The notes beneath the pieces are model-generated. The model was given only the letters and a program-made list of their open reading frames with translations, did no database searches and was not told the DNA's origin. Shown here piece after piece: positions 3,831 to 38,132 of a stretch of 59,229 nt of DNA. Source of the DNA: an uncultured Planctomycetales bacterium (GTDB lineage: Bacteria; Omnitrophota; Gorgyraeia; Gygaellales; Profunditerraquicolaceae); contig CAZAVF010000002.1 in the NCBI GenBank assembly GCA_964488935.1, positions 1 through 59,229 of the forward strand, in the 5' to 3' direction. The position numbers and the translations under genes are program-made. Positions within the stretch are counted from its first letter, which is position 1; each line of letters starts with the position of its first letter.

Positions 3831-3902
3831 AATAACTATGCAACCGGCGGCTAAAGAGATAAAATGTAGGACAAAAGCGGCAGTGATCCCAACCAGTCTA
3901 TT

Positions 3903-8188: not shown

Positions 8189-8196
8189 GCACCGTC

Positions 8197-8835: not shown

Positions 8836-8856
8836 GCGGCGGAGAGCCGCAGCAAA

Positions 8857-9075
8857 ATGCCTATATATGAATATAATTGCCGGGATTGCGGCAGGCGTTC
8901 CGAGTGCTTCCTGCGCAGTCCCGGGGAAGAACCGGTATGCCAGTGGTGCGGCGGCCGTGACCTGGAGCGGCTCGTTTCGCGTTTCGCCTTCAAGTCCGGT
9001 CCTTCGTCGGAAGGCCGTTCGTCCGGAGGTTGCAGCGGATGTTCCGGCGGAAATTGTTCAACGTGCGGGCATTAA
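8857..9075 (+). CDS. FmdB-family zinc-ribbon protein (CxxC...CxxC)
   Basis: MPIYEYNCRDCG....CQWCGG..LERLVS is the signature N-terminus of the FmdB/CxxC_CxxC_SSSS family. The tail is Gly/Ser/Cys-rich. Confidence 0.85.
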   Translation: MPIYEYNCRDCGRRSECFLRSPGEEPVCQWCGGRDLERLVSRFAFKSGPSSEGRSSGGCSGCSGGNCSTCGH

Positions 9076-9132
9076 GCCCCTCCGCACTATCGCAGGGATG
9101 ATAAAACGGGGAATGAACTACAGAGGCAAGAG

Positions 9133-10281: not shown

Positions 10282-10291
10282 GGAGCAATTC

Positions 10292-11999: not shown

Positions 12000-12003
12000 C
12001 CTT

Positions 12004-13173
12004 GTGGTCATGCCGACGCGCAATCTTTTATATGTCATAACCAAACTGGAACTGGGCGGGGCCCAGACCCAGTTGCTGTGTCTGGCCGGAGGGATAGACA
12101 AGCTGGAATTCAGTCCGCGGCTGGCCGCTTCTCCGGGAATTCTCAGCGGCGCTTTTTCTTCCCTTGAAGGGGTGATCCCGGAAAAGGTCCGGTTCCTTGT
12201 CAGGCCGGTGCATCCGTTGAAAGACCTCTGCGCGGTTTTCGAGCTGGCGTATTTGATGCGCCGGCGCGGGATCCAGATTGTCCATACCCACAGCTCGAAG
12301 GCGGGTATCATCGGGCGGCTGGCAGCGCGGCTGGCCGGCGTCAAGGTGATAATACATACCGTGCACGGCTGGAGTTTCAACGACCGGCAGCCGCTCCCGC
12401 TAAGGGGACTTTATGTTTTCTTTGAGCGGGTCTGCGCCGGGTTCAGCGACGCCATTATCGCGGTCTCGGAACATGACAGGCTGACCGGCCTGTCCCTCGG
12501 GATCGGCGGTCCGGACAGGTATGAATTGATCCGTTACGGCATAGATTTCAACCGTTATCCCCGGGGGGACAGGGAATATCTGCGGCGTTCTTTCGGCCTG
12601 GCGCCAGAAGATAAGGTCGTATGCATGGCGGGATGTTTCAAACCGCAGAAGGCCCCTCTTGATTTCATAAGGGCCGCCGCCTTCGTTTCCGCCCGCTGCC
12701 CTTCGTCCAGGTTCCTGCTGGCCGGCGACGGGATAATGCGTCCGGCTGTAGAACAGGCGGTGCGCGGATACGGGCTGCAGGGACGCGTTATCCTCGCAGG
12801 CTGGAGATACGACCTGCCGGAACTGCTGGCCGGGGCGGACGTTTTCGTCCTTACCTCTCTCTGGGAAGGGCTGCCGGTGTCTGCGCTCGAGGCCCTGAAA
12901 AGCGGAGTCCCCGTGATCGCCACCGACACCGGGGGCATAAAGGAAGCGGTCGTGGACGGGGTCAACGGTTATATCGTCCCGCGGAGCGACGCGCAGGCTA
13001 TGAGCCGCCGTATATGCTGCCTGCTGCAGGATGAGGCGTTAAGAATGAGGATGGCGGAGAACGCGGCGCGCAGCCTGGGCAACGAGTATTCCCTGCAGGA
13101 GATGCTTCTTAACACGCAGAATCTATACAGGGAGAAATCAAGGGAGAAAACGGGAGATGTCCCAATTCCTTAG
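12004..13173 (+). CDS. Glycosyltransferase family 4 (GT-B)
   Basis: ITKLELGGAQ N-terminus, HTHSSKAG, and a C-terminal E-G-x-P-x-x-x-x-E-A motif (WEGLPVSALEALKSGVPVIATDTGG). Confidence 0.85.
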   Translation: MVMPTRNLLYVITKLELGGAQTQLLCLAGGIDKLEFSPRLAASPGILSGAFSSLEGVIPEKVRFLVRPVHPLKDLCAVFELAYLMRRRGIQIVHTHSSKAGIIGRLAARLAGVKVIIHTVHGWSFNDRQPLPLRGLYVFFERVCAGFSDAIIAVSEHDRLTGLSLGIGGPDRYELIRYGIDFNRYPRGDREYLRRSFGLAPEDKVVCMAGCFKPQKAPLDFIRAAAFVSARCPSSRFLLAGDGIMRPAVEQAVRGYGLQGRVILAGWRYDLPELLAGADVFVLTSLWEGLPVSALEALKSGVPVIATDTGGIKEAVVDGVNGYIVPRSDAQAMSRRICCLLQDEALRMRMAENAARSLGNEYSLQEMLLNTQNLYREKSREKTGDVPIP

Positions 13174-14131
13174 GATGTCCGTCATTGCCGTCTCGGCGTT
13201 CGTCTGCTCGCGGGTACTGACCGCTTTTTATATACGCGCCGCCGGCAGGTTCTCGCATCCTTCCTCCTCCGGGATCCCTTCCGGCGCCGGGATCGTCTTC
13301 GGGGCATGTTCCCTGGCGGCCGCGTCTATTTTCAGTCCGGGCGGCGGGAATGCCTTCTTTCTGCCGGCTGTTTTTATACTATTGTCGGGTATACTGGACG
13401 ATATCTTCGAGTTCTCCGTGGCGGTCAAGATACTCGTCCAGACGGCGGCGGTGGCATTGCTGGTGCATAACGGTCTGTCTTTGGGAATACTGCCAGGCAA
13501 GGCGGACGCGGCCCTGACGTTCCTCTGGGTGCTCGGCATAACCAACGCCTTCAATTATCTGGACATCGTCGACGGACTGGCCGCTTCCCTGGGGATCATC
13601 TCTTCGCTCGCTTTCTTCATTCTTTTCGCCGCCTGCGGCGACCTTTCAAGGGCCGCCGTCTTCCTCTCTCTTTGCCTGGCGTTATCGGGTTTCTTCCTCA
13701 GCAATTATCCGCCTGCGAAAGTCTACATGGGAAATACCGGCAGTCATTTCATAGGCTTTATGCTGGCGCTCGCCCCGCTGCCGTCGGTTTGCGCTCCGGC
13801 TGCGGCGGGGGCAGGCGTTAACGTCCTGCCGGCGGCGGTCTTGATCGCCGGAGTGCCGGTTTTTGATACCGCTTTCGTGACGCTGCTGCGTTTTTGCCGG
13901 CGCCAGCCTCTTTTCAAGAAAAGCGGAGATCATCTTGCCCTGCGTCTTATCGGGCAGGGGGTCCCGTTGAACGGAATACTCAGGAAAATGACCGCGGCTT
14001 CGGCGTTTTTCTGTCTCTCCGGACTGCTGTTTTGTTATCCCCGGTTGAGGTTATTGTCCGCGGTAGTCGTGCTGCCGGCTTTGTTCATCTGCTTCCGGCT
14101 GGCCAGCGCTGCCGTGCAGAGCGGAAGATGA
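13157..14131 (+). CDS. Polyprenyl-phosphate sugar-1-phosphate transferase (MraY/WecA, glycosyltransferase 4 family)
   Basis: Multi-TM protein with LGITNAFNYLDIVDGLA (NxxNxxDGxDGLA motif). Confidence 0.8.
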   Translation: MSQFLRMSVIAVSAFVCSRVLTAFYIRAAGRFSHPSSSGIPSGAGIVFGACSLAAASIFSPGGGNAFFLPAVFILLSGILDDIFEFSVAVKILVQTAAVALLVHNGLSLGILPGKADAALTFLWVLGITNAFNYLDIVDGLAASLGIISSLAFFILFAACGDLSRAAVFLSLCLALSGFFLSNYPPAKVYMGNTGSHFIGFMLALAPLPSVCAPAAAGAGVNVLPAAVLIAGVPVFDTAFVTLLRFCRRQPLFKKSGDHLALRLIGQGVPLNGILRKMTAASAFFCLSGLLFCYPRLRLLSAVVVLPALFICFRLASAAVQSGR

Positions 14132-15426
14132 ACGGCAGAAAACGGGTGGTGGTCATCGGGGCAGGGCTGTCCGGGTTGAGCGCCGGTATCCGTCTTAAGG
14201 AAAGGGACGCCGATTTCGTCGTTCTGGAGCAGGAGAGCGAACCGGGCGGGCTTTGCCGGTCTAGGAAAAACGGCCGGTTCATTTTTGATTGCTCGGGACA
14301 CCTGCTGCATTTCCGGACCGCCGCCGGCTTCAGCATGGTGGACAGGATGCTCAAGGGCGGATTGGTGGAATTCTCCAGGGACGCCTCGGTCAGGTTGCGG
14401 GAATACGATATCCCGTATCCTTTCCAGGCCAATCTTTACGCGCTGCCGGAGAAATTGCGCCTTGAATGCGTGCGCGGCCTGCAACACCGCGGCCGGTCCG
14501 GCAGGGACCAGGATTTCGCTTCCTGGATCGCGGCAAAGTTCGGTCCCGGCATCGCGAGGCATTTTATGCTGCCGTACAACAGGAAGTTCTGGCGGTATCC
14601 TTTGAGCAGAATGACCTGCGGCTGGACGAAGTCTTTCGTTCCCGCGCCGTCCGCCGGGAGAATGCTTTCCGGCGCGCGCGGGAGGAACGGAGAATCCTTG
14701 GGATATAATGCCAGGTTCTGGTATCCGTCGGCGGGAAGGATAGATGTTCTGCCGCGCAGCATGGCGGAAACCTGCGGTAACATTCTTTACGGCCGCAGGG
14801 TCGTGCGTATAGACGCCAAGCGCCGCGTAGTGCGCACCTCGCGGGGGGAGGAGTTCTCTTATCGCAGATTGATCTCCACTATGCCGATGCCGGACCTCGG
14901 CTCCGCATGCCCCGGTATGGGCAGGGAGGAAATGTCGTGTCTCCGGCGGCTGAGGTGGAATTCGCTGCTGGTATTCAGTTTCGGACTTTCGGAGAGGCCG
15001 GCTCCTTCCAGACATTGGATTTATTTCCCGGGGAAGGAATTCGTTTTCTACCGCGTCTGCTTCCCTCACAATTTTTCTCCCTCCGCCGCTCCGGAAGGAC
15101 AGGGGAGTCTTTACGCGGAAGTGTCCTTTCCCCCGGGAAAGAGACCCGGGGGGAAGCGGTTGAAGAGGGAAATACTTTCGGGTTTACGCAGGGCCGGCAT
15201 CGTCTCCGGAAAGGCGCGGGTCTGCGCGGAGGACGTCCTGGAGATAAAATACGCCTATCCAGTTTACGACCGGGAATATGCCGCGTCGCGCAGGCGTATA
15301 GTCTCAAGTTTTCTTTCCGGCGGAGCGGTTTTGTGCGGGAGATACGGTAACTGGCGTTATTTTTCCATGGAGGACGCGATCCTGGACGGGATATCGGCTG
15401 CGGAAAGAGCGGTGGAGAATGCGTAG
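14128..15426 (+). CDS. FAD/NAD(P)-binding oxidoreductase (amine-oxidase / UDP-galactopyranose-mutase superfamily)
   Basis: Rossmann motif VVVIGAGLSGLSAG...VVLEQESEPGGLCRS. The start was moved to the ATG at 14128 (ATGA overlap with the upstream stop). Confidence 0.7.
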   Translation: MNGRKRVVVIGAGLSGLSAGIRLKERDADFVVLEQESEPGGLCRSRKNGRFIFDCSGHLLHFRTAAGFSMVDRMLKGGLVEFSRDASVRLREYDIPYPFQANLYALPEKLRLECVRGLQHRGRSGRDQDFASWIAAKFGPGIARHFMLPYNRKFWRYPLSRMTCGWTKSFVPAPSAGRMLSGARGRNGESLGYNARFWYPSAGRIDVLPRSMAETCGNILYGRRVVRIDAKRRVVRTSRGEEFSYRRLISTMPMPDLGSACPGMGREEMSCLRRLRWNSLLVFSFGLSERPAPSRHWIYFPGKEFVFYRVCFPHNFSPSAAPEGQGSLYAEVSFPPGKRPGGKRLKREILSGLRRAGIVSGKARVCAEDVLEIKYAYPVYDREYAASRRRIVSSFLSGGAVLCGRYGNWRYFSMEDAILDGISAAERAVENA

Positions 15427-16195
15427 TTCATTCAGACTTATCTGGGATAACCGGGGGATATTGCGCAGCATCGCGCTTTCGCAGCTGCGCGCCAAATACG
15501 CGGGAACGGCGCTGGGCGCGGCATGGGGCGTCCTGAATCCGATCGCCGTCACCCTGGCCATAATCTTCGCCTTCTCCGCGGTGCTGAAGATAAACATGGA
15601 AAAGTTCCCGCTTTTCGTCCTCGCCGGGTTTTTCCCGTGGAATTTCTTTTCTTCTTCCGTGAGCGAAGCCTCGCGCTCCCTGCTGGAAAGAAAGGATATC
15701 ATGCGGCAGCTGGATTTTCCCAGGGCGGCGGTGCCGCTGGCGTACGGACTGGCCGGATTCGCGGATTATCTCAGAGAATGGATATTCATTCTGCCGCTGT
15801 TCGCCGTATTCAACCCCAAGACGCTGTTATTTCTTCCCTGGCTGCCGGTGATCCTGTTCCTTCACCTGCTTTTTGTCTGCGGGATGTGTCTTTTAGTCGC
15901 GGCGGTCAACGTATATTGCCGCGATACGTCGCACCTGCTGAATCTGGGACTCATGTTCTGGTTCTGGATCACGCCGATATTCTATACATCGGACATGATC
16001 CCCGGCAGGTTTTACTGGATAATAGCCTTTAACCCGCTGGCGCAGTTCCTGGAGGCGTACCGGGCGGTCCTTTTCTCGGCGCACGCCCCGGCTGCGGGCG
16101 TGCTCGCCGCGTCGGCGGCGTGGTCCTGTCTCAGCGCCGCCGCCGGGATCGCGGTGTTCCGCGGGCTGGAAGGGGATATACTGAAGAGGCTGTAG
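15419..16195 (+). CDS. ABC-2 type polysaccharide/teichoic-acid exporter permease (Wzm/TagG-like)
   Basis: 258 aa, about 6 TM segments. The N-terminus LSQLRAKYAGTALGAAWGVLNP is typical of ABC-2 permeases. Immediately precedes the ATPase gene. Confidence 0.8.
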   Translation: MRSSFRLIWDNRGILRSIALSQLRAKYAGTALGAAWGVLNPIAVTLAIIFAFSAVLKINMEKFPLFVLAGFFPWNFFSSSVSEASRSLLERKDIMRQLDFPRAAVPLAYGLAGFADYLREWIFILPLFAVFNPKTLLFLPWLPVILFLHLLFVCGMCLLVAAVNVYCRDTSHLLNLGLMFWFWITPIFYTSDMIPGRFYWIIAFNPLAQFLEAYRAVLFSAHAPAAGVLAASAAWSCLSAAAGIAVFRGLEGDILKRL

Positions 16196-16205
16196 ACGGC
16201 GGGGA

Positions 16206-18935
16206 ATGATAAAGGGGGATGGCGGACGAATGAGTATCGTAAAGTTCAGCGACGTCTGGGAGATGTTCAGGATAAGGTTTTCCGGAGAAGGGCGTTCCTG
16301 CTGGGAGAACTACTGGGCGCTGCGAGGGATAACTTTCTCCGTCTCAGAGGGGGAGATCCTGGGCATCATGGGGGAGAACGGATCGGGAAAGACCACGATA
16401 CTCAAGCTTGCCGCCGGGATCCTCCGTCCGGACCGCGGCAGCGTGGAAGTGAAAGGAAAAGCCGCCGGTCTTCTTGAGCTCGGGGCGGGATTCCAGCCGG
16501 AACTTACCGGCAGGGAGAACGTTCTTATCTGCGCCGGCATGCACGGTTATTCCGGAGAGGCCGCCGCCAAAAAACTGGAAGAGGTGTCCGGTTTCGCCCG
16601 TATCGGAGATTTCATGAACGCCCCGGTGAAGAATTATTCGCAGGGCATGTTCGTCAGGCTCGCTTTTTCTTTCGCCGTCAGCCTGGAGCCGGACGTTCTC
16701 CTTATCGACGACAGTCTGGCCGTCGGGGACGCCGATTTCCAGAAAAGCTGTATCGAAAAGATACTGTTCCTGAAAGACTCCGGGCGCACCATAATTTTCG
16801 TCACGCACGATACGGGGCTGCTGAACAAGATCGCCACCCGCGCGCTGCTTTTGAAGAACGGCAGGATAATGGAGGATTCGCAGCCGGAGCGCGTCGGCGC
16901 CCTCTATGCACTTGTCTGCGGAAGCCGGGAAGGGAAGGCTTCCCTTGAACAGGGCAGACTTCAGATGGTGTTCAACAACGGTAGATTGTTCTTTTCCTGG
17001 AACGGACTGCAGGTGACTTCCGAGAAAGGCATTGCCGCGTATCTGCTCTGCTCCGGAGAATGGGCGTTTTCCTATTCCGGGGAATGGAAGATAACCGGCG
17101 GCGGCGGGAACAAGATAGAGGCGGAAGGGGTTTTCGCGGACAAAGGGCTGTCGTTGAAGTGGGTCGCCGAGATCCTGGATAACGGCGGCGGCGTCCAGTG
17201 GGACATATACGCGTATTCCGCCGAGGGAACGGCTCCTGTTTCCGACTGCCGGATGGAGCTTTGTTTCGACCGGGACTACAGCGAGTGGTTCACAAACGTT
17301 TCGCGGGGGAGATTGGGGGCGGTGTCCTCCGATCCGGAGACCGAACCCGTTTCCGACAGGATCCGTTACGCAGCGGTCAAACCGGAGGCGCGGGGAAAAG
17401 ACCGGGACGCCGCGCTGCCGGAGGTAGTGGTGGAGCCCCGCAGAGAGAGAGACGACCTGGACGCGGTGGAGATCCTGGACGGGAAGGAGAACTTCGGCAG
17501 GATGATGCTGCGGAGCGCCCACCCCCCGTTGTCCTCGGCCCCGAAATGGCGCTCTGCGGCGGCCTGTTTCTCCGGCAGGATATTTTTCCGCGGACAGCAG
17601 TCGCCGCCGCCGGTCCCGGAGGCCGAGGACGGCAAAGACCTTGTCTCCGGGGACAGCAGGTTCCTTTTCCGTAACGGAGAGTTGTTGATAATCAGCGCGG
17701 GCGTGCCGCTTACCTTTTCCCGGCATATATGCGCGGAGTTATACGGTGACAGACGTATATACGATTCCCGGGAGGCCGTCTGGAAAATCAGGAAGACGGG
17801 GCCGGACAGGATAGTGGCCTGCGGTTCCTGGCCGGGAACGCTGTTCCGGCAGCTCTGGGAAATCCTGCTGGCCGCGGACGGAACGCTGCGCCTGAAGATA
17901 TGGGCGGTATGCCGTTCCTCTTCCGTCTTCATCCGGAGCAGGCTGCAGGTCATGTGCCTGCCGGCATATTCGTCTTATTTCAGCTGTTTCGGCTCGGGAG
18001 AATTCCCTCCCAGGTTCTTCACCGAGGAGTACGACGTGCTGCAGAGATGCCTGCCATGCGGCGACCTGGGGGTCTGCGACAACGGCGGCAAACTCCCCAC
18101 CTTGTCGCTTTCGTTCGAGGGAGAGGAGAATAATTTCGCGAAGGTCCTGAATTCCGACCTTTTCAACCGCAGCCGCATATTGAGAGTGGAAAAAGTTGAA
18201 CCGGAGGATAAGACGCTGTTCCCTCCCGGCATGCACCGCTGTTTTTCCGTTTCCATCAGGGCTTTCCCCCCGGGAACAGACCTTTCTTCGGGGGCGGAAT
18301 TACATTCAGGCAAAGCCGGACTGTATTTTTCCGGCGGAAGATTCGCGCTTCTATACGAAGGTATGCCCCTGAGCGGAGACCTGGGGTTGTACGTTTCTTT
18401 CCGTTCCGGCGGGCGGTGGCATGATTCCGTTTCCAAGGCGGTATGGGAAATGGAGTATTGTAAAGATGGGAAGCTGGCCTGTTCCGCGCAATGGCGGCAT
18501 CTGCCGGTAAAACAGGCGTGGAGCATCGAAGCAAAAGGGAAGGGGAGGTTCGGCATACGTGTGGTCTTGATCGTTAGCGGGGACATCGTGCTGGAAAGAC
18601 AGCAGTTCAACCTGGCGCTCCGCGAGGCTTACAGCCTTTGGTCTCATCGTTCCGGCGGCGGCGGATTCGCTGCGTTCCTGCGGGATACCGGCGATGACTG
18701 GCAAACGGTGGCGACGGTGCCTCCCGGCGCGCAGCCGCTAAGCGCCTCCGGCAGGGAGAACGGCGTGCCGGACGTGGAGCTGTCCGTAGATGAAATAAAG
18801 GAAGGCTGGAAACTGGAAGCGGTCAATTCCGATCTCTGCTACCGTTCAAGGGTCCTGCGGTTGAGCAATTCCGGCAAGACCGCGCTTTCCCCCGGGGAAA
18901 CCGTGTTTTTTTCCGGAACACTGACGGTGGAATGA
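16206..18935 (+). CDS. ABC transporter ATP-binding protein (Wzt/TagH-like) with about 670-aa C-terminal extension made of three repeats
   Basis: Walker A GENGSGKTT, signature-like YSQGM, Walker B LLIDDSLAVGD in the first 240 aa or so. The rest is a three-fold internal repeat (see findings). The start could instead be the ATG at 16230. Confidence 0.85.
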   Translation: MIKGDGGRMSIVKFSDVWEMFRIRFSGEGRSCWENYWALRGITFSVSEGEILGIMGENGSGKTTILKLAAGILRPDRGSVEVKGKAAGLLELGAGFQPELTGRENVLICAGMHGYSGEAAAKKLEEVSGFARIGDFMNAPVKNYSQGMFVRLAFSFAVSLEPDVLLIDDSLAVGDADFQKSCIEKILFLKDSGRTIIFVTHDTGLLNKIATRALLLKNGRIMEDSQPERVGALYALVCGSREGKASLEQGRLQMVFNNGRLFFSWNGLQVTSEKGIAAYLLCSGEWAFSYSGEWKITGGGGNKIEAEGVFADKGLSLKWVAEILDNGGGVQWDIYAYSAEGTAPVSDCRMELCFDRDYSEWFTNVSRGRLGAVSSDPETEPVSDRIRYAAVKPEARGKDRDAALPEVVVEPRRERDDLDAVEILDGKENFGRMMLRSAHPPLSSAPKWRSAAACFSGRIFFRGQQSPPPVPEAEDGKDLVSGDSRFLFRNGELLIISAGVPLTFSRHICAELYGDRRIYDSREAVWKIRKTGPDRIVACGSWPGTLFRQLWEILLAADGTLRLKIWAVCRSSSVFIRSRLQVMCLPAYSSYFSCFGSGEFPPRFFTEEYDVLQRCLPCGDLGVCDNGGKLPTLSLSFEGEENNFAKVLNSDLFNRSRILRVEKVEPEDKTLFPPGMHRCFSVSIRAFPPGTDLSSGAELHSGKAGLYFSGGRFALLYEGMPLSGDLGLYVSFRSGGRWHDSVSKAVWEMEYCKDGKLACSAQWRHLPVKQAWSIEAKGKGRFGIRVVLIVSGDIVLERQQFNLALREAYSLWSHRSGGGGFAAFLRDTGDDWQTVATVPPGAQPLSASGRENGVPDVELSVDEIKEGWKLEAVNSDLCYRSRVLRLSNSGKTALSPGETVFFSGTLTVE

Positions 18936-21067
18936 CAATATCGGGCAGAACTTCGGAAAACGGCGGTGTCCGCGCAGCGGTAAAGCCGGCAAAAGTATTT
19001 TCCGCCTCAAGCGGGCGGGCCGTCTGTATCGCGCTTTTTTTGTCCCTCTGCTGCTGCGGATACGTGTTCCGGTCGGCGGAATCACCGGCGAAGGCGTTTT
19101 ACTCCGCACAGTGGCGGATATTGACGGATTCCGGCTGGGCCGCGGCTTCCGGCGGTCAGGCCGAACTGTACAGCGGGACGAAAAGTTTTCCGGTAAAGCT
19201 GCGCTATTTATTGAAGAAAACAGATCTTTGGCAATGGCCGGAAATAACGTTCTCTCTGGATCTCCCGGAGGCGGCGGATCTAAGCGGTTTCTCATGGCTC
19301 AAGGTCCGCCTGAGGGGTCCGGCAAAAGAAGAGATGTACATCGTCGTGACGGTCGAGGATAAGAACACCGGGGCGTTGAAGCCGTGCATATGCCGGATCC
19401 GCACGGCCGGTTATCCTATAGATTACAAACTGCCTTTTTCCGCGTTTGTTGTCGCTCCGGACTGGACGGTGCGCAATCCCGGGTATTCCAAGGGCATTGA
19501 ATGGGGAAGAACGCGTTCGATAGGAGTGCATAAAAAGGGGGCGGACGGCGGCAGCGGCAGCCTTTTATGGGAGCGCCTGGCTTTTTACGGCGGAGATTGT
19601 CCTTCGCCTTACGATATAGAAAAAGACAGGAGTTCGCTTCCGCGGCGCTCTTTGATTTCACTGGAACAGCGCGGGAAAAAAGACGCTTACCCCGGCCGCG
19701 TGGAGATATTTCCCGGCAAAGGGAACAGCAGAACAGTGGGCAGGTATTTATACGGAGTGAACCTGGCCAGCTGGCTGGATCTTCCGGACGAGGAACAGGT
19801 CAGGCTTTTGAGACCGTCGTTACTGCGCCTGGGAGGCCCTTTCCTTGACCGTTATTCCTGGCGCAGCGGCAGTTATACTTTCCCCGGATCCGAGTTCCCG
19901 GTACGGATGTTCGGGCTGGACAGGTTCGTGCGGTTCTGCCGTTCCGTGGGGAGCGAACCGTTGATCCAGGTAAATGCCCTGGGGTTAAGCGGCGAAGCCG
20001 GGGACGGCAGCGATGCGGATAAAGAGGCCGCGGAGATGGTGCGGTATTTGAACGGCGGACCGGGCCGCGGCGTACAGTTCTTCGAGATAGGGAACGAGCC
20101 GTTCATCTGGCACCTGACGCACCGCGACCTGCATCCGCGGCCCTGCTCCGCGGAGGAATATACTCTCCGTTTCGGGAAGATAGCCGGGGCCATGCGCCGC
20201 GCCCAGCGTGGATTGCGAAACGGACGGGACATCAGGATATTCGCCCCGGCGATCTCCACATCCTGGCAGGGATGGCGTGATTGTCTGGGCGGAGAGAAGA
20301 GCGCCGTGGAGAAATTCCTTGCCGGCTGCGCTTCTCTGAAGGACGGAACCGACGGCAGGCCTTTGCTGGACGTTTTGAGCTTCCATCTGTTCGATTGCTT
20401 TTCCTCCGCAGGGAACCCGGATGTGCAGCACGGTAATGCGGCCCTGCTTGACGCTACCGCCGTATGGTGGAAAGAAGATTACGTCAACAGCTACGACAAG
20501 GCGTTTGCCGCAGGGGACAGGCCGGCGGTATTGCCGCGTTTCAGGAAATGGATGTCCGGCTGCAGGCCGGGGCTCGAGCTGGCGGTGACGGAGTTCAATA
20601 TCGAATCCGAATCAATGGTAAATTACGATATGATCTGGAAGGTGCTGTATTTAAGCGACCTCTACGGCATTCTCGCGGAGGAAGGCGTCGATTACGCCGC
20701 GCAATTCTGTCTGAACTCGTCCGACCAGAACATAGCGATGCTGGACGATACCGGGAAAAAGACAGCCCTGTATCATCCGTTCCGGATGTATTCCAATTAT
20801 TTTTCCGGGGTGTTGCTGGATAAGAAAGTCATCCCTTCGGACTGGGTGAGCGTATATGCTTCCCGCCCGGGCCGGGATTATACGATCATGGCGGTCAACA
20901 AGGCAAACGAGGCCCGGGATACGGAGTTCCTGGTCGGAAAAGATGACGGGAGCCGCATAGTATTTCACCGCAGGCTGCCCGCTTTGAGCTTAAGCTGCAT
21001 CAGGTTGAAAGGCCCCGCTTACAAGGAAGCGGAAGTATGGGAATATGGCAGAGAACAGATCAATTGA
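18932..21067 (+). CDS. Membrane-anchored protein with N-terminal carbohydrate-binding-like domain and clan GH-A-like glycoside hydrolase domain
   Basis: Hydrophobic anchor AVCIALFLSLCCCGYVF. FFEIGNEPFIW (acid/base-type NEP motif) and LAVTEFNIES (nucleophile-type motif) are spaced about 180 aa apart, as in (beta/alpha)8 clan GH-A enzymes. Confidence 0.6.
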   Translation: MTISGRTSENGGVRAAVKPAKVFSASSGRAVCIALFLSLCCCGYVFRSAESPAKAFYSAQWRILTDSGWAAASGGQAELYSGTKSFPVKLRYLLKKTDLWQWPEITFSLDLPEAADLSGFSWLKVRLRGPAKEEMYIVVTVEDKNTGALKPCICRIRTAGYPIDYKLPFSAFVVAPDWTVRNPGYSKGIEWGRTRSIGVHKKGADGGSGSLLWERLAFYGGDCPSPYDIEKDRSSLPRRSLISLEQRGKKDAYPGRVEIFPGKGNSRTVGRYLYGVNLASWLDLPDEEQVRLLRPSLLRLGGPFLDRYSWRSGSYTFPGSEFPVRMFGLDRFVRFCRSVGSEPLIQVNALGLSGEAGDGSDADKEAAEMVRYLNGGPGRGVQFFEIGNEPFIWHLTHRDLHPRPCSAEEYTLRFGKIAGAMRRAQRGLRNGRDIRIFAPAISTSWQGWRDCLGGEKSAVEKFLAGCASLKDGTDGRPLLDVLSFHLFDCFSSAGNPDVQHGNAALLDATAVWWKEDYVNSYDKAFAAGDRPAVLPRFRKWMSGCRPGLELAVTEFNIESESMVNYDMIWKVLYLSDLYGILAEEGVDYAAQFCLNSSDQNIAMLDDTGKKTALYHPFRMYSNYFSGVLLDKKVIPSDWVSVYASRPGRDYTIMAVNKANEARDTEFLVGKDDGSRIVFHRRLPALSLSCIRLKGPAYKEAEVWEYGREQIN

Positions 21068-22949
21068 CATATCGGTGGTGATCCCCACCTATAACCGTAA
21101 ACACCTGCTGGCGGATTGTCTTGATTCGCTGCTGCGCCAGGGACTGCCTGGAAGGGCCTTCGAAATAATCGTGGTGGATGACGGTTCCTCGGACGGCACG
21201 GATGTTCTCGCCGGAGAAGCCGGCAGGAGAGAGGGCAATGTCCGGTATATAAGGCAGGAGCGCCGCGGTCCGGCCGCGGCCAGGAATAACGGAGCAGCGC
21301 ATTGCGGCGGCAGGATAGTCGCCTTCATAGACGACGATTGCCGCGCCTGCCCGGGCTGGCTTCAGGGTATGCTGGATGCCCACCGGCTGCATCCTGATGC
21401 GGCGGCCGTGGGCGGATATACTCTGCCGGATCCGGAAGGCGACGCCGCGCAGGAAGTAAGCCAGTTCCTGAGCAACAGCAGCATCGAGATCGACTGCGGC
21501 GGAGGCCGGGAGCCGATATTCTTCCCTACCTGCAACGTCTCCCTGAAGAAAGACGTCCTCTCGCGCTGCAAGTTCGATCCTTCTTTCCCTTTCCCCGCCG
21601 GAGAAGACCTGGAATTCTTCTGGAGGCTGCATAAGCAGGGGGCGGGACTGGTTTTCGATCCGGAGATCAGGGTTACTCACCGCCGCCTCCCGGGCACGGC
21701 GGCCTTCTGCAGGCAGGCGTATCTTTACGGCAGGGGCAATCTGTTGGTGCAGCGCATTCACCGCGACCACGTGCTGCTTAAGGAGTTGAAGACCGGACGG
21801 TTCGGCTTCTGGGCCGGCACACTGGTCAACATTGCCGGGATACCCCGGTTCGCTTACTGTCTCTACAGGCTCTTCATGCGTTCCAGAGGGAGATCTTACG
21901 GACTGTTGAAAAAAGCCGGCGTGTTCTTTTATTTCTGCCTGCATAAGACGGCGTACATCCTCGGCAATATGGCGGAATTCCGCAGCCGGCGCAGACTTCC
22001 TTTCACCGCTCCGCAGCTTTTAATACTGGACGTCACGCATAAATGCAATCTGCATTGCCGTATCTGCGATATCTGGAAGAACGCGGGACGGGAAAAAGAC
22101 ATCCCCGGAAGGTACGTCAGGAAGCTGCTGAAAGAAGCGGCGTCGCTGGGCATAAAAGAGGTGACCTTTTCCGGCGGGGAAGCCATGCTGCGCAGCGACA
22201 TCCTGGATCTTCTGGCATATGCCCGGGGCCAGGGGCTTAAAGGAGTAGGGCTGCTTTCCAACGGGATCGCCGTGCGGAAGAACCTCGGGAAGATAGAGCC
22301 GTTCCTGCGCGACGGGACGGCGGTCCCTGTCCTGTCCCTGGATTCCCTGCGCCCGGAACTGCATAATTACGTGAGGGCCGACGGGCGGGCCTGGGAGAAT
22401 TCGATCGAAACGCTCAAGTCCCTGGGCGCTTTAAGGAAACAGGCCCCGGAGGTTAAGTTCAGCCTGATCAGCATCGTTTTCGAGCGTAACCTTGAGGAGC
22501 TCGAAGACCTCTATGTTTTCGCGCGCGAACTGGGCGCGTGTAATATCCAGTACCAGCCGCTGCTGGCAAATAATTTGAGGATGTCGGAGAGAAAGAACGC
22601 GGAGTTATGGGTGAAACCGGGGAGTTTCGACAGGCTGGAAAGCGCGGTCGAGAGACTCGCCGCGCGCGGGCGCTCGGACGGCGGGTTCCTGCGGAATTCC
22701 GGGGAAAATCTCAGGCTGTTCAGAAAATATTTTGCCGGTGAGCTGGTCCCCGGCGATTGCGCGTGTTCTTCCGCCGGCAGGACCGTTCTTATCGCCAACG
22801 ACGGGCATTGCCGGACCTGTTTTTCCGCTTACGGGGATATCCGCCGGCAGAGCCTTGAGGATATCCTTGCCGGGCCGCGGATCATCGAGGCCAGGGGGAG
22901 CGTGCGTAAATGCCCCTGGCCGTGCCTGCTGCCCTGTTTTTGCGATTGA
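21045..22949 (+). CDS. Fusion protein: GT2 glycosyltransferase (N) - hydrophobic linker - radical SAM domain with C-terminal Cys cluster (C)
   Basis: N-terminal ISVVIPTYNRKHLLADCLDSLL....IIVVDDGSSDGT (GT2). From about aa 320, LDVTHKCNLHCRICD (CxxxCxxC) and FSGGEAMLRSDI. The C-terminus has ...CRTCF...CPWPCLLPCFCD. Confidence 0.85.
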   Translation: MAENRSIDISVVIPTYNRKHLLADCLDSLLRQGLPGRAFEIIVVDDGSSDGTDVLAGEAGRREGNVRYIRQERRGPAAARNNGAAHCGGRIVAFIDDDCRACPGWLQGMLDAHRLHPDAAAVGGYTLPDPEGDAAQEVSQFLSNSSIEIDCGGGREPIFFPTCNVSLKKDVLSRCKFDPSFPFPAGEDLEFFWRLHKQGAGLVFDPEIRVTHRRLPGTAAFCRQAYLYGRGNLLVQRIHRDHVLLKELKTGRFGFWAGTLVNIAGIPRFAYCLYRLFMRSRGRSYGLLKKAGVFFYFCLHKTAYILGNMAEFRSRRRLPFTAPQLLILDVTHKCNLHCRICDIWKNAGREKDIPGRYVRKLLKEAASLGIKEVTFSGGEAMLRSDILDLLAYARGQGLKGVGLLSNGIAVRKNLGKIEPFLRDGTAVPVLSLDSLRPELHNYVRADGRAWENSIETLKSLGALRKQAPEVKFSLISIVFERNLEELEDLYVFARELGACNIQYQPLLANNLRMSERKNAELWVKPGSFDRLESAVERLAARGRSDGGFLRNSGENLRLFRKYFAGELVPGDCACSSAGRTVLIANDGHCRTCFSAYGDIRRQSLEDILAGPRIIEARGSVRKCPWPCLLPCFCD

Positions 22950-23007: not shown

Positions 23008-24372
23008 ATGAGAATAGCTTTGGTCATGCCGCCGCTTTACGGCGTGGATATGCCCCCTTTAGGTATCGCTTACGTGGCGGGGCGCCTGATGCGGGACGGG
23101 CATGAAGTCCGCGTGTTCTGCCTGAACTCCGAGCTTTTTCATCATAACCCGGATAAGCGGTATCTCTGGGACTGGGACAGTTCCGACGAATGGCGGTCTC
23201 TGGAAAGGGTGGGCGCGCATTTCGATCTCCCGGCGCTTTTGCGGGAATGGACCGGCAGGATATCAGCTTTTGCCCCGGGGATGGTGGGATTCAGCGTGAA
23301 CAGTCATTCTTTGCCGCTTGCCGGGGCGCTCGCGGGGAGTATCCGCGCGGCCGTGAAAGGCGTCCCTTTGATCTTCGGCGGGCCGATGTGTTCCGAAAGC
23401 GATATCTCAAAGGAGACGCGTCCCTGCGCCGACATATACGTGCGGGGAGAAGGGGAAGAGACGGTTTCGGCGATCGCGGCGGCCGCCGGGTCGGGGGCCG
23501 ACCTGCGGGCCCTGACCCTGCCGGGAACGGTGGTAGACACCGGTTCCGGGCTGCGCGACAACGGGCCGGCCGTAAGGATAGGCGATATAGATTCCATCCC
23601 GATCCCGGCGCTGGAGTTATTCGACCTGGAAAGGTATACCAATAAAGAAGAGATACCGATACTTTTTTCCCGGGGCTGCGACTTTTCCTGCAGGTTTTGC
23701 ACCGATAAGCCTATGTGGGGGAACTACCGGGTGAGGACCCCCGAAAGCATCTTCGCGGAGATGAAAAAGCGTTATGCCTCCTGCGGCAGAAAAAAGTTCA
23801 AGTGCAACGATCTGATGGTCAACGGCTCCCCCGCAGCGCTCGACAGGCTGAGTTCGATGATAGCTTCCTCGGGCAGCGGTTTTTCCTGGGGTGGTATGGC
23901 CAGGGCATCCGAGAAGATGACGGCACGGCAGGCCGCCGGATGGAAGGCCGGCGGGTGCGGGTATCTTACTTACGGCGTGGAGAGCGGGTCCCAGGCGGTA
24001 TTGTCGGACATGGGCAAGCCTTCGAGGAGGGCCCTGTCCGTTTCCTTCTCGGCGGCGCACAAGGCGGGGATCAAGGTCAATACCCTCTGGATGGTAGGCT
24101 ATCCCAGCGAGAGATGGCGGGATTTCTTCCGGACCATGTCTTTCCTGCTGCTCCAGCGCGGCAATATCGACGAATTCGTCAGCGTGAGCTGTTGTTATAT
24201 CCCGAGACTTTCCTGGCTGGGGAGGCACAGCCGGGAACTGGGAATAGATTATGATCCCGGCGGCAACTGGTATAACAGGAAAGGGAATAACGCGGGGTTG
24301 CGCCGCCTGCGCAGAAAGCTCCTGCTTATTTACGCCCGTTTGATCGGGATCTACAGAGGGGGGATATCTTAG
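23008..24372 (+). CDS. B12-binding-domain radical SAM protein (class B rSAM)
   Basis: N-terminus MRIALVMPP...PLGIAYVAG (B12-binding Rossmann-like). rSAM motif FSRGCDFSCRFCTD. Confidence 0.85.
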   Translation: MRIALVMPPLYGVDMPPLGIAYVAGRLMRDGHEVRVFCLNSELFHHNPDKRYLWDWDSSDEWRSLERVGAHFDLPALLREWTGRISAFAPGMVGFSVNSHSLPLAGALAGSIRAAVKGVPLIFGGPMCSESDISKETRPCADIYVRGEGEETVSAIAAAAGSGADLRALTLPGTVVDTGSGLRDNGPAVRIGDIDSIPIPALELFDLERYTNKEEIPILFSRGCDFSCRFCTDKPMWGNYRVRTPESIFAEMKKRYASCGRKKFKCNDLMVNGSPAALDRLSSMIASSGSGFSWGGMARASEKMTARQAAGWKAGGCGYLTYGVESGSQAVLSDMGKPSRRALSVSFSAAHKAGIKVNTLWMVGYPSERWRDFFRTMSFLLLQRGNIDEFVSVSCCYIPRLSWLGRHSRELGIDYDPGGNWYNRKGNNAGLRRLRRKLLLIYARLIGIYRGGIS

Positions 24373-27876: not shown

Positions 27877-29048
27877 AAGAGATTATATTTTCTGTGACCG
27901 CCAGATGCAATTTGAAGTGCATAATGTGCGACATCCCTGCTTCCCGCGGCGTGGAATTGCCCACGGGCGTCCTTTTCTCGGCCCTGGAAGATGCCGCGGC
28001 ATTGGGCGCTTCTACCGCGGTATTCAGCGGGGGGGAACCGCTTTTGCGCCGGGATATTTTCGAACTGGCGGAGTTCTCCAGGAAGCTGGGACTGAACGCC
28101 TGCCTTACCTCTAACGGCTGCCTTATCGATGAAGAGGCCGCCGGAAGGATCGCGGACAGCGGTGTTAACGTGGTGAACGTTTCACTGGAAGGCGACAGAC
28201 AGGTGCACGAGAGATTGCGCGGCGCCGGGACTTATGACAAGGCATTGCTGGCGCTGCGGCTGCTGCGGGCCAGGGGCGTGGAAACCACCATCGCCTCCAC
28301 GGTCTCAAGATATAATTATTCCTCCCTGGAGCATATAGTGGAGCTGGCCGGGGAAACAGGGGCCACCACGCTCAAGTTCCAGCCCTTCAGCCGCATATTC
28401 GTCTCCCCGGGCAGGAACTGCAGCGAGTTCCTTCTCGGGGAGGTTGAAGCCGGTATCGCTATGGACATCCTGCGTAACATACATAAGCTTTGCGGACAGC
28501 GCGGGATATCGGTCAATCCTTTACCGTATCTGGAACGTATCCCCGCCTATCTGTCCAGGGGGATCGGCGGCAGCGCGGCCAGCTGCAGGGCGCTTTTTTC
28601 TTCCTGCCCGGTGGACTCCTCCGGAAAGGTCTTTCCCTGCTGGGTGTTGTCCGGCAAGGACATGCTGATAGGCGATATCTCGCGCACCCCTTTAAGGGAA
28701 ATATGGGGTAATCCCAGGCACCGCGATATCATAGGTCATATCAGCAGCCGTAACTGCGGTGGATGCCTGATGAGTTGTTACGACGCAAACTTCGGCCGTA
28801 CCGTTTTCAGCCCGGCAGCCGGATTATCAGGCAGTGCGGCGTCTTCGGGGCGGGGATCGGCGCTGCGTAAACTGAAGAGGAAGATAATGTTCTACTCCGC
28901 TTATCGGGGATCTCTTCCGCGTTTGCTGCGGCGTCTCTTGCCGGCTGCGCGGCGCCGCGGCGCCGCGGCGCGGACAATCCCGGGAATAAAGACCTCCGAG
29001 ATAGAAAAAGCGGAGGAGATGATCCGCAAGGAATTGAGACGTTCTTAA
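27864..29048 (+). CDS. Radical SAM protein with SPASM/twitch-like C-terminal Cys motif (paralog 4)
   Basis: VTARCNLKCIMCD, FSGGEPLLRRDI, C-terminal CRALFSSCPVDSSGKVFPCW...CGGCLMSC. The start was moved to the ATG at 27864. Confidence 0.85.
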   Translation: MFKLKEIIFSVTARCNLKCIMCDIPASRGVELPTGVLFSALEDAAALGASTAVFSGGEPLLRRDIFELAEFSRKLGLNACLTSNGCLIDEEAAGRIADSGVNVVNVSLEGDRQVHERLRGAGTYDKALLALRLLRARGVETTIASTVSRYNYSSLEHIVELAGETGATTLKFQPFSRIFVSPGRNCSEFLLGEVEAGIAMDILRNIHKLCGQRGISVNPLPYLERIPAYLSRGIGGSAASCRALFSSCPVDSSGKVFPCWVLSGKDMLIGDISRTPLREIWGNPRHRDIIGHISSRNCGGCLMSCYDANFGRTVFSPAAGLSGSAASSGRGSALRKLKRKIMFYSAYRGSLPRLLRRLLPAARRRGAAARTIPGIKTSEIEKAEEMIRKELRRS

Positions 29049-30319
29049 TGAAGATATCCTGTTACGTCCCGCTGTATAATAACGCGGACACGATAGCTTA
29101 TTGTCTGGATTCTCTGCTGCGGCAGTCTTTGGCGCCGGAAGAGATACTGGTCGTGGACGACGCTTCTTCCGACCGAAGTCCGCAGATCGCGGCGCGGTAC
29201 CCGGTGAAATTGATCAGGCATCCCAGGAATCTGGGGCTGGCCGCGGCCAGGAACACCGCTCTTAATAACGCCGGCGGGGAATTCATCGCTTCCATAGACG
29301 CCGACTGCACGGCAGATCCCGGATGGCTTCATATCCTCTCCGGAGCCCTGGCATCTTCGCCGCGCGCGGCCGGGGCCGGCGGCAGGGTCATGGAGACGCA
29401 GGCTTCTTCGGTCTTCGATATGTGGAGGGCGGCGCATATGCGCCAGCTCTGGCAGGAAAGCGAGACCAACCCGCCGTTCCTTTTCGGGGCCAACACTATT
29501 TTCCGCTCCGGCAGCCTGCGGATGGTCGGCATGTACGACGAGGCCCTCGGGAACAACGCCGAGGATGTTGATATCTGCGGCAGGCTGAAATCCGCCGGTA
29601 ACGACCTGATATATTGTCATAACGCCGTCGTGTATCATCAAAAGAAAGACAGCCTGAAGTCGCTGTTTAACAGCCACTGGAACTGGCACAGGTTGTATTA
29701 TGAGAAAACAGGGTGGTTCCGCGGCGATCTCGGCGCCAAGATCAGGGAGAATATCGGGGCCGCCAACCATTATCTTGAGGAGGATCTGTCCGCCGGCCGG
29801 CATCAGTTGTTGTACCTGGATTTCCTGCTCGGGCTGTTTTATTCTTTTAAGGACCTCCTTTATATAAAGGGCAGCTATGTTATCCCTTCCCCCGCGGTCT
29901 TATGGGCTGCGTTGACCGACCTGAGATTGAGCGAAGCGTTTTCCCGGGGAAACAACCGGGTGTTCCGTTTCGACAGAGGGGAGACCGGCTACGCCGCCGA
30001 CTTCCTGTCCGCGGCCCTGTCCATCGGAGGAACGATCAAGCGAAAGTTCCCGAACGACGATTTCCTGACGCGCATATACGCCGACCTGCAGGAAGCCGTC
30101 TATGGTATAGAGGACAGGCAGTTGGCGAGAGCGATAGAGGCGTGCTCATGCGTTGACTGGGACTGGTTGCCCGACGGTAATTACCCCCTCTCGGGGGAGC
30201 AGCTGCTCCCTGTCTTAAAGGAGGAGTTATCTTCCTGGCTGGACATGGTCGTCACCAAGTCCGGGGAGACCCCGACTTTGATAGAACTGGCTTCAAGAGA
30301 ACAGGCGTCCAGACATTGA
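29048..30319 (+). CDS. GT2 glycosyltransferase with about 170-aa C-terminal extension
   Basis: ISCYVPLYNNADTIAYCLDSLLRQSLAPEEILVVDDASSDRS plus a DxD-like IDAD. TAATG stop/start overlap with the upstream gene. Confidence 0.85.
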   Translation: MKISCYVPLYNNADTIAYCLDSLLRQSLAPEEILVVDDASSDRSPQIAARYPVKLIRHPRNLGLAAARNTALNNAGGEFIASIDADCTADPGWLHILSGALASSPRAAGAGGRVMETQASSVFDMWRAAHMRQLWQESETNPPFLFGANTIFRSGSLRMVGMYDEALGNNAEDVDICGRLKSAGNDLIYCHNAVVYHQKKDSLKSLFNSHWNWHRLYYEKTGWFRGDLGAKIRENIGAANHYLEEDLSAGRHQLLYLDFLLGLFYSFKDLLYIKGSYVIPSPAVLWAALTDLRLSEAFSRGNNRVFRFDRGETGYAADFLSAALSIGGTIKRKFPNDDFLTRIYADLQEAVYGIEDRQLARAIEACSCVDWDWLPDGNYPLSGEQLLPVLKEELSSWLDMVVTKSGETPTLIELASREQASRH

Positions 30320-34502: not shown

Positions 34503-34515
34503 GGTTCACGCCGTT

Positions 34516-35562: not shown

Positions 35563-35589
35563 TAATTAGAGAAGAGAAAGGGGTATTCC

Positions 35590-35751: not shown

Positions 35752-35766
35752 GCATTCAGCGGTAAG

Positions 35767-36759: not shown

Positions 36760-36770
36760 GGGAGGACTAT

Positions 36771-38116: not shown

Positions 38117-38132
38117 GTATCAGAGGAGGATT

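Follow-up and report, generated by a model that had tools for sequence, protein, structure and literature searches.

Glycosyltransferases (GTs) and radical S-adenosylmethionine (SAM) enzymes (rSAMs) are known to act in turn on membrane-bound sugars. In the HpnI/HpnK/HpnJ pathway and with the calditol synthase Cds, a GT first puts a hexose on a membrane-anchored acceptor, and an rSAM then contracts the ring of the bound sugar to give a cyclitol (PMC13459092). These enzymes are separate proteins, and their acceptor is a hopanoid or a glycerol dialkyl glycerol tetraether (GDGT) lipid. In contrast, the gene described here fuses a family 2 GT (GT2) to an rSAM domain in one polypeptide. It lies at 21045..22949 on the plus strand of a 59,229-nucleotide (nt) stretch of DNA, hereafter the window (GenBank contig CAZAVF010000002.1, positions 1 to 59,229), from an assembly (GCA_964488935.1) labelled as an uncultured Planctomycetales bacterium and placed in the Omnitrophota by GTDB. 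An HpnJ-like B12-binding rSAM (B12-rSAM) and several GT2s are encoded in the same gene cassette. While HpnJ is an rSAM with a B12-binding domain, the fused rSAM domain is of the SPASM type.

SPASM-type rSAMs are known mainly as maturases of peptides and cofactors; an action on sugars is, to our knowledge, established for just a few members of the radical SAM superfamily. Two stand-alone soluble enzymes of antibiotic pathways, BlsE (cytosylglucuronate decarboxylase) and DesII, carry out radical chemistry on a sugar ring. In mycofactocin biosynthesis, a SPASM-type rSAM (MftC) and a GT2 (MftF) belong to one pathway, as they do here. The mycofactocin pathway has a precursor peptide, MftB with its RiPP recognition element (RRE; RiPP, ribosomally made and post-translationally modified peptide) and other mft genes, none of which accompanies the fusion; its context is a polysaccharide export locus.

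The fusion has two intact, invariant active sites, a short joint between them, and a conserved place in a cassette that has a WecA-type primer and a Wzm/Wzt transporter and is rich in rSAM genes. We favour reading it as a bifunctional enzyme that adds a sugar and edits it in a lipid-linked surface-glycan pathway dependent on an ABC transporter. The substrate, the order of the steps and the chemistry are what we infer, and a probability of about 55% is given to this reading.

The fusion protein and its two active sites

The open reading frame (ORF) starts with ATG and encodes 634 amino acids (aa). It passes the junction without a stop, as the initial annotation had stated, and the strings quoted there (VVIPTYNR, VVDDGSSDGT, THKCNLHCRICD, FSGGEAMLRSDI, and CPWPCLLPCFCD) are all present in the translation. 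Each half matches its own hidden Markov model far above the curated Pfam cutoff: Glycos_transf_2 (PF00535) at aa 10-164 (E 2.1e-35, 122.6 bits against a cutoff of 23.3) and Radical_SAM (PF04055) at aa 330-492 (E 8.8e-18, 65.5 bits against 29.5). A search of 5.8 billion proteins returned 550 matches, of which the best 120 were inspected. All 120 are full-length and share the same Pfam architecture, nearly all have about 630-650 aa, and their identity to the fusion is 41-85%. In three independently assembled close relatives the gene is 1905 nt long and collinear, with zero indels. In all three segments of the gene (GT2 part, linker, and rSAM part), substitutions among close relatives pile up at the third codon position; the differences from locus L003 at the three codon positions are 32/16/74, 13/10/30, and 25/19/80 in these segments, respectively. 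An assembly or frameshift artefact is ruled out by the at least 120 homolog clusters of the same architecture, the indel-free relatives, and the third-position bias across the joint. By these sequence comparisons, the fusion is real and under selection. Its AlphaFold2 (AF2) model has a mean predicted local distance difference test score (pLDDT) of 90.5 and a predicted template modelling score (pTM) of 0.74.

Residue conservation was read from an alignment of 64 fusion homologs with identity down to about 43%, to which all statements of invariance refer. The GT2 catalytic domain covers aa 9-250 (21069..21794, plus strand). Its DxD motif is D96/D98 (within D96-D97-D98) and its catalytic pair is E187-D188; D96, D98, E187, and D188 are all invariant. 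Foldseek matches the domain with probability 1.0 to AvpGT, PcManGT, K4CP, WrtF, and TarP. The Pfam match, the DxD and E-D motifs, and this GT-A fold bear out the earlier assignment of a GT2 to aa 1-250.

Two helices follow at aa 252-281 and 287-314 (21798..21986, plus strand), recognized from secondary structure, hydropathy, conservation, and stand-alone relatives. In the AF2 model they run from 252 to 264 and 266 to 281, with a kink at P267, and from 287 to 314. The initial annotation had placed two hydrophobic segments at aa 253-310. There are indeed two helices in this region, but they are amphipathic and not clear transmembrane spans, because their hydropathy is sub-threshold and they carry conserved charged and polar residues. 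No 19-residue Kyte-Doolittle window of the fusion reaches 1.2 (the two peaks, at positions 260 and 291, are 1.11 and 0.95; averaged over the family, the maximum is 1.41). Charged or polar residues that are invariant or nearly so are K265, R268, H300, K301, N308, and E311, and the fully invariant helix residues are F255, F269, H300, K301, Y304, G307, N308, and E311. Hydropathy gives no support to a transmembrane hairpin linker. A more hydrophobic segment is present in some distant fusions.

Stand-alone GT2 relatives (about 310-320 aa) retain both helices through a Y-x-x-G-N-x-x-E motif and then end at once, so the helix pair is best taken as a C-terminal subdomain of the GT2 module. Stand-alone rSAM relatives start about 30 aa ahead of the first rSAM strand. 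The membrane-proximal linker that was first proposed does not consist of hydrophobic transmembrane segments. The two modules actually meet in a connector of about 10 residues (aa 315-324; 21987..22016, plus strand), a short coil in the AF2 model, which is marked by the ends and starts of the stand-alone relatives and by a dip in pLDDT to about 80, and which agrees with the junction noted earlier at about nt 22000. The helix pair is probably a membrane-interface element that places the GT2 at the cytoplasmic face of the membrane.

The radical SAM core covers aa 325-505 (22017..22559, plus strand) and is supported by PF04055, invariant motifs, and profile and fold matches. Its cluster motif CX3CX2C is C334/C338/C341 (nt 22044-22067) and its SAM-binding GGE is G377-G378-E379; both are invariant. 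The AF2 model has an alternating beta/alpha core from aa 325 to about 505, i.e., a partial TIM-barrel core. A SPASM-like auxiliary Fe-S region lies near the C-terminus (22764..22943, plus strand). Pfam SPASM (PF13186) scores 20.5 bits at aa 574-622, slightly short of its cutoff of 21.5, which the close relatives P0122 (27.4) and P0139 (33.0) and distant fusions exceed. C574-x12-G587-x4-C592 is an exact and invariant match to the first half of the SPASM signature (CX9-15GX4C). In the terminal set C623-x3-C627-x3-C631-x-C633, the first three cysteines are invariant and C633 is found in 97% of sequences, so that six auxiliary cysteines are invariant or nearly so; C589 is found in only 58%. A small beta-sheet (580-583, 588-590, and 595-598) is predicted amid the conserved cysteines, as in SPASM/twitch domains. 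A complete rSAM domain with a Cys-rich tail had been annotated at aa 320-634, and the Pfam match, the cluster motif, and the SPASM-like end all agree with it.

Relatives of each half and the order of the two steps

Single-sequence, profile, and fold searches with the GT half all lead to glycan-elongating GT2 enzymes. The profile match to the chondroitin polymerase K4CP has an E-value of 2.4e-40, and GalT1, TarS/TarP, the PglI-like AvpGT, and WrtF are also matched. These enzymes share the GT-A fold, the DxD, and the E-D base with aa 1-250, but none of them has a radical SAM domain, and the C-terminal amphipathic helix pair with its invariant Y-x-x-G-N-x-x-E is specific to the family of the fusion. 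Polyprenyl-phosphate sugar synthases match far more weakly (DPMS 2e-11, ArnC 6e-7). A synthase of the GtrB/DPMS/ArnC type was rejected as the closest GT type on this much weaker similarity and on the helices being below transmembrane hydropathy. The GT2 module is predicted to be a glycan-elongating, inverting enzyme with a DxD metal/nucleotide-sugar site and an E-D base.

Among solved structures, BlsE stands first against the family profile of the rSAM half (5.7e-15) and SkfB second (2.3e-14), followed by MoaA, viperin, GDGT-MAS/Tes (1.2e-10), and anSME. By fold, BlsE again gives the tightest superposition (root-mean-square deviation 3.6 Å over 283 columns), and SuiB, SkfB, and DesII are also matched. 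That the best profile and fold relative is a sugar-acting enzyme speaks for an action of the fusion on a sugar. The relationship is distant. BlsE and DesII have only about 18% identity to the fused rSAM, and the NCBIfam BlsE model is not among the matches listed for the fusion and matches the paralogs far below its cutoff. The conserved auxiliary motif of 6-7 Cys at the extreme C-terminus further sets the fusion apart from both enzymes. Below threshold, NCBIfam models match the N-terminal half of the fusion (EpsD and MftF) and the C-terminal half (NirJ2/AhbD, PqqE, MoaA, mycofactocin rSAM, and sactipeptide maturases).

The same relatives bear on the order of the two steps. BlsE and DesII act on nucleoside- or nucleotide-linked sugars, and the fused rSAM could likewise act before transfer. 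It would then turn a common nucleotide sugar into a donor that is out of the ordinary and possibly labile, and pass it directly to the fused GT2. This reversed order is the main rival to the favoured reading. The cassette of the window has no classical nucleotide-sugar modifying gene (epimerase/dehydratase or aminotransferase) between 12004 and 33411, so its rSAMs might be the enzymes that make unusual donors. Epimerase/dehydratase and DegT genes are, however, present in other cassette loci and in distant fusion loci. BlsE and DesII are remote relatives, to which the fused rSAM is no closer than to peptide maturases, and the known pairs of GT and rSAM (HpnI then HpnJ, and Cds) act after transfer. 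With these points on its two sides, the reversed order is possible but not probable, and transfer followed by editing is preferred.

A glycan export cassette rich in radical SAM genes

The fusion sits in a co-directional, gene-dense block. To follow its conservation, the proteins of the window were compared with the ORFs of 38 loci of at least 15 kb, and each count below is the number of loci in which a protein has its best match to an ORF. The fusion itself is recovered in 34 of the 38 loci. The conserved cassette, all on the plus strand, starts with a GT4 glycosyltransferase (12004..13173; Pfam; 21 loci) and a WecA/MraY-family polyprenyl-phosphate sugar-1-phosphate transferase, the putative primer (13157..14131; 23 loci), which matches Pfam Glycos_transf_4 and, below cutoff, NCBIfam wecA (1.4e-18). 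They are followed by an FAD/NAD-binding oxidoreductase with an amine-oxidase fold, PRK07208-like (13894..15426; 25 loci), a Wzm-like ABC-2 permease (15419..16195; 32 loci), and a Wzt-like ABC ATPase of 909 aa with an all-beta C-terminal extension of about 660 aa (16206..18935; 30 loci). A 711-aa protein resembling glycoside hydrolase family 44 (GH44), with an N-terminal hydrophobic segment (18932..21067; Pfam Glyco_hydro_44 5e-12; 7 loci), precedes the fusion.

Downstream of the fusion are a B12-rSAM (23008..24372; 27 loci) and four stand-alone rSAM genes (24381-25442, 25301-26698, 26689-27876, and 27783-29048; 23-29 loci), so that each of the five rSAM genes after the fusion is recovered in 23-29 of the loci. 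Two of the four stand-alone rSAMs pass the Pfam SPASM cutoff. Next are a second GT2 of 423 aa, MftF/EpsD-like (29048..30319; 15 loci), an unassigned 250-aa protein starting at 30460, the HpnJ-like B12-rSAM (31209..32567; 17 loci), and a third GT2 of 290 aa (32539..33411; 12 loci), which is the last conserved gene. By BLASTP, the fused rSAM is 25-27% identical to the four stand-alone rSAMs over about 300-330 aa (E 5e-18 to 4e-35) and can be regarded as their full-length paralog. Upstream of 10292 nothing is conserved in the 38 loci, and downstream of 34516 there is a single weak match. By these matches, the cassette is conserved across about 30-34 loci.

Gene neighbours were counted in the 33 loci with a full-length fusion. 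Directly upstream of the fusion is wzt in 19, a GH44-like gene in 5, and wzm in 4. Directly downstream there is always an rSAM (25 of 33) or a B12-rSAM (8 of 33), and within 10 kb on each side the number of rSAM-domain genes has a median of 6 and a range of 4-9. The GH44-like gene stands between wzt and the fusion only in this lineage, in its closest relatives, and in locus L029; elsewhere the fusion directly follows wzt. It appears to be an accessory insertion. Its stop overlaps the start of the fusion by 23 nt.

The nucleotide-binding domain (NBD) of the Wzt-like ATPase is 42% identical to that of Aquifex aeolicus Wzt, with a TM-score of 0.81 to 6m96, and the top Foldseek match of the whole model is full-length A. 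aeolicus Wzt (7k2t/8dku). The NBD and first beta-domain align along this full-length protein, including its carbohydrate-binding domain, and the ATPase at 16206-18935 can be regarded as a bona fide O-antigen-type Wzt. While Wzt of the A. aeolicus or E. coli O9a type has one beta-domain, the 909-aa protein apparently has three in tandem. Its extension (16956-18935) is predicted to be all-beta with three repeats of about 220 aa, only the first of which aligns with a known carbohydrate-binding domain; the remaining 450 or so residues, also predicted to be all-beta, resemble two further copies of the unit. The extension has no Pfam or PDB sequence match. The full length is kept across cassettes at 33-36% identity. 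The AF2 model of this protein is only moderately confident (pLDDT 75) because the homolog search gave only nine relatives. The public gene call is 901 aa, against 909 aa for the ORF.

The cassette combines a WecA-type priming enzyme and cytoplasmic GTs with an ABC-2 permease and a Wzt that has a C-terminal beta-domain, and by this gene content it is assigned to a polyprenyl-linked glycan pathway dependent on an ABC transporter (Wzm/Wzt). In E. coli O9a the gene order is wzm-wzt-wbdD, with WbdD as the terminator. The order of wzm, wzt, and a modifying enzyme here recalls this arrangement. While the gene after wzt in O9a encodes the kinase/methyltransferase terminator WbdD, here it encodes the GT2-rSAM.

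Other genes of the cassette add detail. The start of the FAD oxidoreductase ORF is likely too far 5': except for the closest relative, homologs align only from residues 78-82 onwards, and the gene probably starts near 14130, directly behind the WecA-like gene. The ORF of the rSAM at 25301 likewise probably starts too far upstream, since alignments to distant homologs begin at residues 28-79 or so. Sub-threshold NCBIfam matches to one exopolysaccharide (EPS) system are found for the GT4 (EpsE), the GH44-like protein (EpsB), and the GT2 half of the fusion (EpsD). The best NCBIfam match of the GT4 is the GT4 of the PEP-CTERM/XrtA system (TIGR03088). These matches hint that the glycan scaffold genes are derived from an EPS-type locus. 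The HpnJ-like protein matches NCBIfam HpnJ with an E-value of 1.8e-68 and 231.6 bits, against a cutoff of 577.6, and none of the other cassette genes scanned reaches the cutoff of an NCBIfam model. Unlike the hopanoid pathway, the cassette has no squalene-hopene cyclase or hpn genes. The HpnJ-like gene is flanked by GT2s with no hopanoid genes nearby, which hints at ring-contraction chemistry on a sugar in a non-hopanoid context, and its presence in the same cassette is a point in favour of transfer followed by editing.

The same gene can also be counted for a lipid substrate. In this alternative, the rSAM and its paralogs modify the polyprenyl carrier or a membrane lipid, in the manner of Tes, Mss, Hbs, or the hopanoid- and ladderane-type enzymes, and the GT2 adds a head-group sugar to give a glycolipid. 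In single-sequence searches of the PDB, the rSAM half matches the tetraether synthase GDGT-MAS best (7tol, 4.6e-8), homologs of Mss and Hbs are reported in Omnitrophota (10.1101/2023.10.20.563219), and beside the HpnJ-like gene the cassette has a 'lipid biosynthesis B12-rSAM'-like gene and the FAD oxidoreductase, whose fold is that of CrtI/HpnE. The 7tol match is, however, limited to aa 325-438 (326-419 by profile), the generic cluster-binding N-terminus, and a Tes/GDGT-MAS-type enzyme was rejected on this ground; by family profile it stands behind BlsE, SkfB, and MoaA. The transporter with its alignment to A. aeolicus Wzt is of the O-antigen type, WecA, the GT4, and several GT2s indicate an oligo- or polysaccharide, and no lipid-synthesis gene is conserved in the cassette across the 38 loci. 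Because the similarity to Tes is confined to the generic core, a lipid is judged less likely than a carbohydrate, and this alternative is unlikely.

A peptide is the other substrate to be weighed. SPASM-type rSAMs are typically peptide maturases, SuiB and SkfB are among the fold matches, and the sub-threshold NCBIfam matches include MftF for the GT half (7e-40), mycofactocin rSAM for the rSAM half (1e-13), and sactipeptide maturases for the paralogs. The product would then be RiPP- or cofactor-like, with the rSAM-SPASM and its paralogs modifying a peptide that the GT2 glycosylates, as in MftC/MftF or the glycocin S-glycosyltransferases. These scores are far under the curated cutoffs (137 bits against 280 for MftF, and 51 against 265 for mycofactocin rSAM). 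Pfam finds no RRE/PqqD-like domain in the fusion, where the segment ahead of the rSAM core consists of the GT2-module helices. The gene-dense cassette has no intergenic room for a precursor peptide and no plausible conserved small ORF. Its conserved partners are the WecA-like enzyme, the GT4, and O-antigen-type Wzm/Wzt, not a peptidase or a peptide exporter. Lacking an RRE, a precursor ORF, and a peptide exporter, a peptide substrate is less likely than a carbohydrate, and we consider a peptide product very unlikely.

The association of the two halves is not restricted to one architecture. In locus L060 they exist as separate genes in one rSAM-rich cluster: the GT2 with its helices corresponds to residues 7-316 of the fusion (38% identity) and the rSAM to residues 312-634 (39% identity), and one B12-rSAM and one other rSAM lie between them. 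This locus (2556-17102, labelled 'uncultured Methanosarcinales') has nine consecutive rSAM/B12-rSAM genes in addition to the split form. Larger proteins are also found, e.g., GT2-rSAM-rSAM/SPASM (P0110, 963-976 aa), B12-rSAM-GT2-rSAM/SPASM (P0122, 1161 aa), GT2-coiled coil-rSAM-rSAM (P0156), and GT2+GT4+rSAM/SPASM (P0310, labelled Aenigmatarchaeota). The Omnitrophota-type locus L002 encodes two different GT2-rSAM fusions (10001-12892 and 20045-22687), a 963-aa protein that carries a second rSAM-SPASM domain and an 880-aa protein; two Peptidase_U32 genes and a PEMT-like gene lie upstream. An exhaustive profile search recovered distant full-length GT2-rSAM-SPASM fusions (P0211, P0212, P0230, and P0253), stand-alone halves, and the same rSAM type at the C-terminus of multi-GT2 proteins of 1000-1500 aa. 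Two of the three distant fusion loci that were read have a glycan-locus context. One (L071) has a Wzx-type flippase, an rSAM-SPASM, an rSAM, a GT2, a DegT aminotransferase, two GT4s, and a B12-rSAM as neighbours. The other (L073) has four B12-rSAMs, a GT2-methyltransferase, an epimerase/dehydratase, DegT, and a thiamine pyrophosphate enzyme.

That such proteins recur, independently, beside polysaccharide genes argues more strongly than any other finding for carbohydrate as the substrate class. The fusion had been called a 'Rosetta stone' link for the whole locus, and the split form, the larger fusions, the conserved cassette, and the paralogy of the fused rSAM to its neighbours all uphold this. 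It had also been said to couple glycosyl transfer with radical chemistry on the same substrate. The fusion, real and conserved, does link the two within one pathway; that they act on the same molecule is as yet inferred. The fusion might instead serve only for co-expression or co-localisation, with the two domains acting on separate residues or steps without hand-over, or with a non-catalytic rSAM. In favour of this, the split halves of L060 are not adjacent, and the number and order of rSAM genes differ among loci. The catalytic residues of both halves are, however, invariant down to about 43% identity, about 60 species retain the fusion, and several architectures re-invent or extend it. For a protein of two domains, a pTM of 0.74 suggests that these have a defined position relative to each other. 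Such a purely organizational role is highly improbable.

The favoured add-and-edit pathway can be drawn as follows. The WecA-like enzyme would prime polyprenyl phosphate, and the GT4 and GT2 enzymes would assemble the glycan on the cytoplasmic side. At the cytoplasmic face of the membrane, the GT2 of the fusion would attach one sugar to this polyprenyl-linked glycan. The rSAM domain would then take a hydrogen atom from the added sugar, or from an adjacent one, on the lipid-linked intermediate. This abstraction could start a tailoring reaction, e.g., oxidation, epimerisation, decarboxylation, deoxygenation, or ring rearrangement/contraction. The stand-alone rSAM paralogs and the B12-rSAMs may make further edits before Wzm/Wzt exports the finished glycan, and the extended beta-domain region plausibly reads the modified chain end. 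ABC-transporter-dependent pathways typically assemble the glycan in the cytoplasm, which suits oxygen-sensitive, reductant-dependent enzymes.

Several observations weigh against this pathway. No curated NCBIfam model reaches its cutoff on either half of the fusion. The peptide maturases SkfB and SuiB score nearly equal to BlsE, and the substrates of BlsE and DesII would allow the rSAM to act first, as set out above. The auxiliary pattern (6-7 Cys, CX3CX3CXC) deviates from the canonical SPASM pattern (CX2CX5CX3C...C). The hydropathy of the helices is below threshold, which weakens the case for their association with the membrane. The third distant fusion locus, L072, is not clearly within a glycan cluster.

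Distribution, flanking regions and significance

The distribution of the family was examined by scanning one genome per GTDB species with family-specific peptide patterns, so that the counts refer to this family and not to all GT2-rSAM fusions. The scan gave 68 loci, about 60 of which carry the family, and nearly all of these are labelled Candidatus Omnitrophota. The initial annotation had asked for the phylogenetic spread of the architecture; it is seen here in at least 120 homologs and about 60 GTDB species. The closest matches are two Omnitrophota metagenome-assembled genomes (85-86% identity) and Candidatus Undivivens industriae, a named Omnitrophota species (84%). In the exhaustive profile search, the close family collapses to about 5 clusters at 50% identity. 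Taxon labels are given as deposited, and other contigs are labelled uncultured Planctomycetales, Nanoarchaeota, Woesearchaeota, Paceibacterota, or Methanosarcinales. Members at 36-44% identity with the last four labels are found in L044, L045, L056, L029, and L060. The labels outside Omnitrophota may be binning or label noise in ultra-small-cell fractions, or they may reflect horizontal transfer among episymbiotic lineages.

Outside the cassette, the GC content of the window falls from about 0.59 to about 0.54 between roughly 34 and 50 kb. The region 33789-47593 begins with a GT2 resembling the polyprenyl-phosphate hexose synthases AglJ/PpgS/ArnC (33789) and has two further rSAM-SPASM genes (34516 and 37040). 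It also has ORFs without a Pfam match at 35767, 38070, 39107, 39935, 40843 (minus strand), 45318, and 46154, an NTP_transf_5 gene (42371-43552, minus strand), and a PMT_2/ArnT-like GT-C (43539-45092, minus strand). In other loci this region does not stand beside the cassette; it could be a glycosylation/rSAM module of its own, possibly acquired. On the other side, housekeeping-type genes in 6-1456, 6263-8188, and 10292-11260 encode V/A-type ATPase subunits B (partial) and D, a 641-aa protein with an N-terminal PilZ domain, and a PAC2-family protein.

Full-text literature searches found no description of the GT2-rSAM fusion or of the cassette. The Omnitrophota papers that were found mention radical SAM only in giant-protein domains, in lipid enzymes (Mss/Hbs), and in generic mining of biosynthetic gene clusters. 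The fusion is named 'glycosyltransferase' at NCBI and 'MoaA/NifB/PqqE/SkfB family radical SAM enzyme/GT2 family glycosyltransferase' at JGI. The NCBI label hides the rSAM half, and genome mining may misread such clusters as RiPP- or ladderane-like. The GT2 and rSAM domains are each ordinary members of huge superfamilies; what appears to be new is their fusion and the rSAM-rich glycan cassette. Beyond the fusion, a clade of SPASM-type rSAMs dedicated to glycans is implied, with each locus deploying 4-9 of them in an O-antigen-type pathway. By virtue of its GT2 half, the fusion limits the search for the substrates of all the paralogs to the sugars of one pathway.

The bacteria of the phylum Omnitrophota are very small, may depend on hosts, and have hardly been cultured, and the envelope is likely central to how they live. 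The fusion, its four paralogs, and two B12-rSAMs in an O-antigen-type export cassette point to extensive radical chemistry on surface polysaccharides. As a tentative extension, Omnitrophota and possibly other ultra-small anaerobes might rewrite an O-antigen-type glycan while it is still lipid-linked, with 4-9 rSAMs of a glycan-directed SPASM-type clade, as the carbohydrate counterpart of RiPP maturation. The fusion would be the add-and-edit module of such a system and might make a radical-modified cap at the chain end that is recognized by the triple beta-domain of Wzt.

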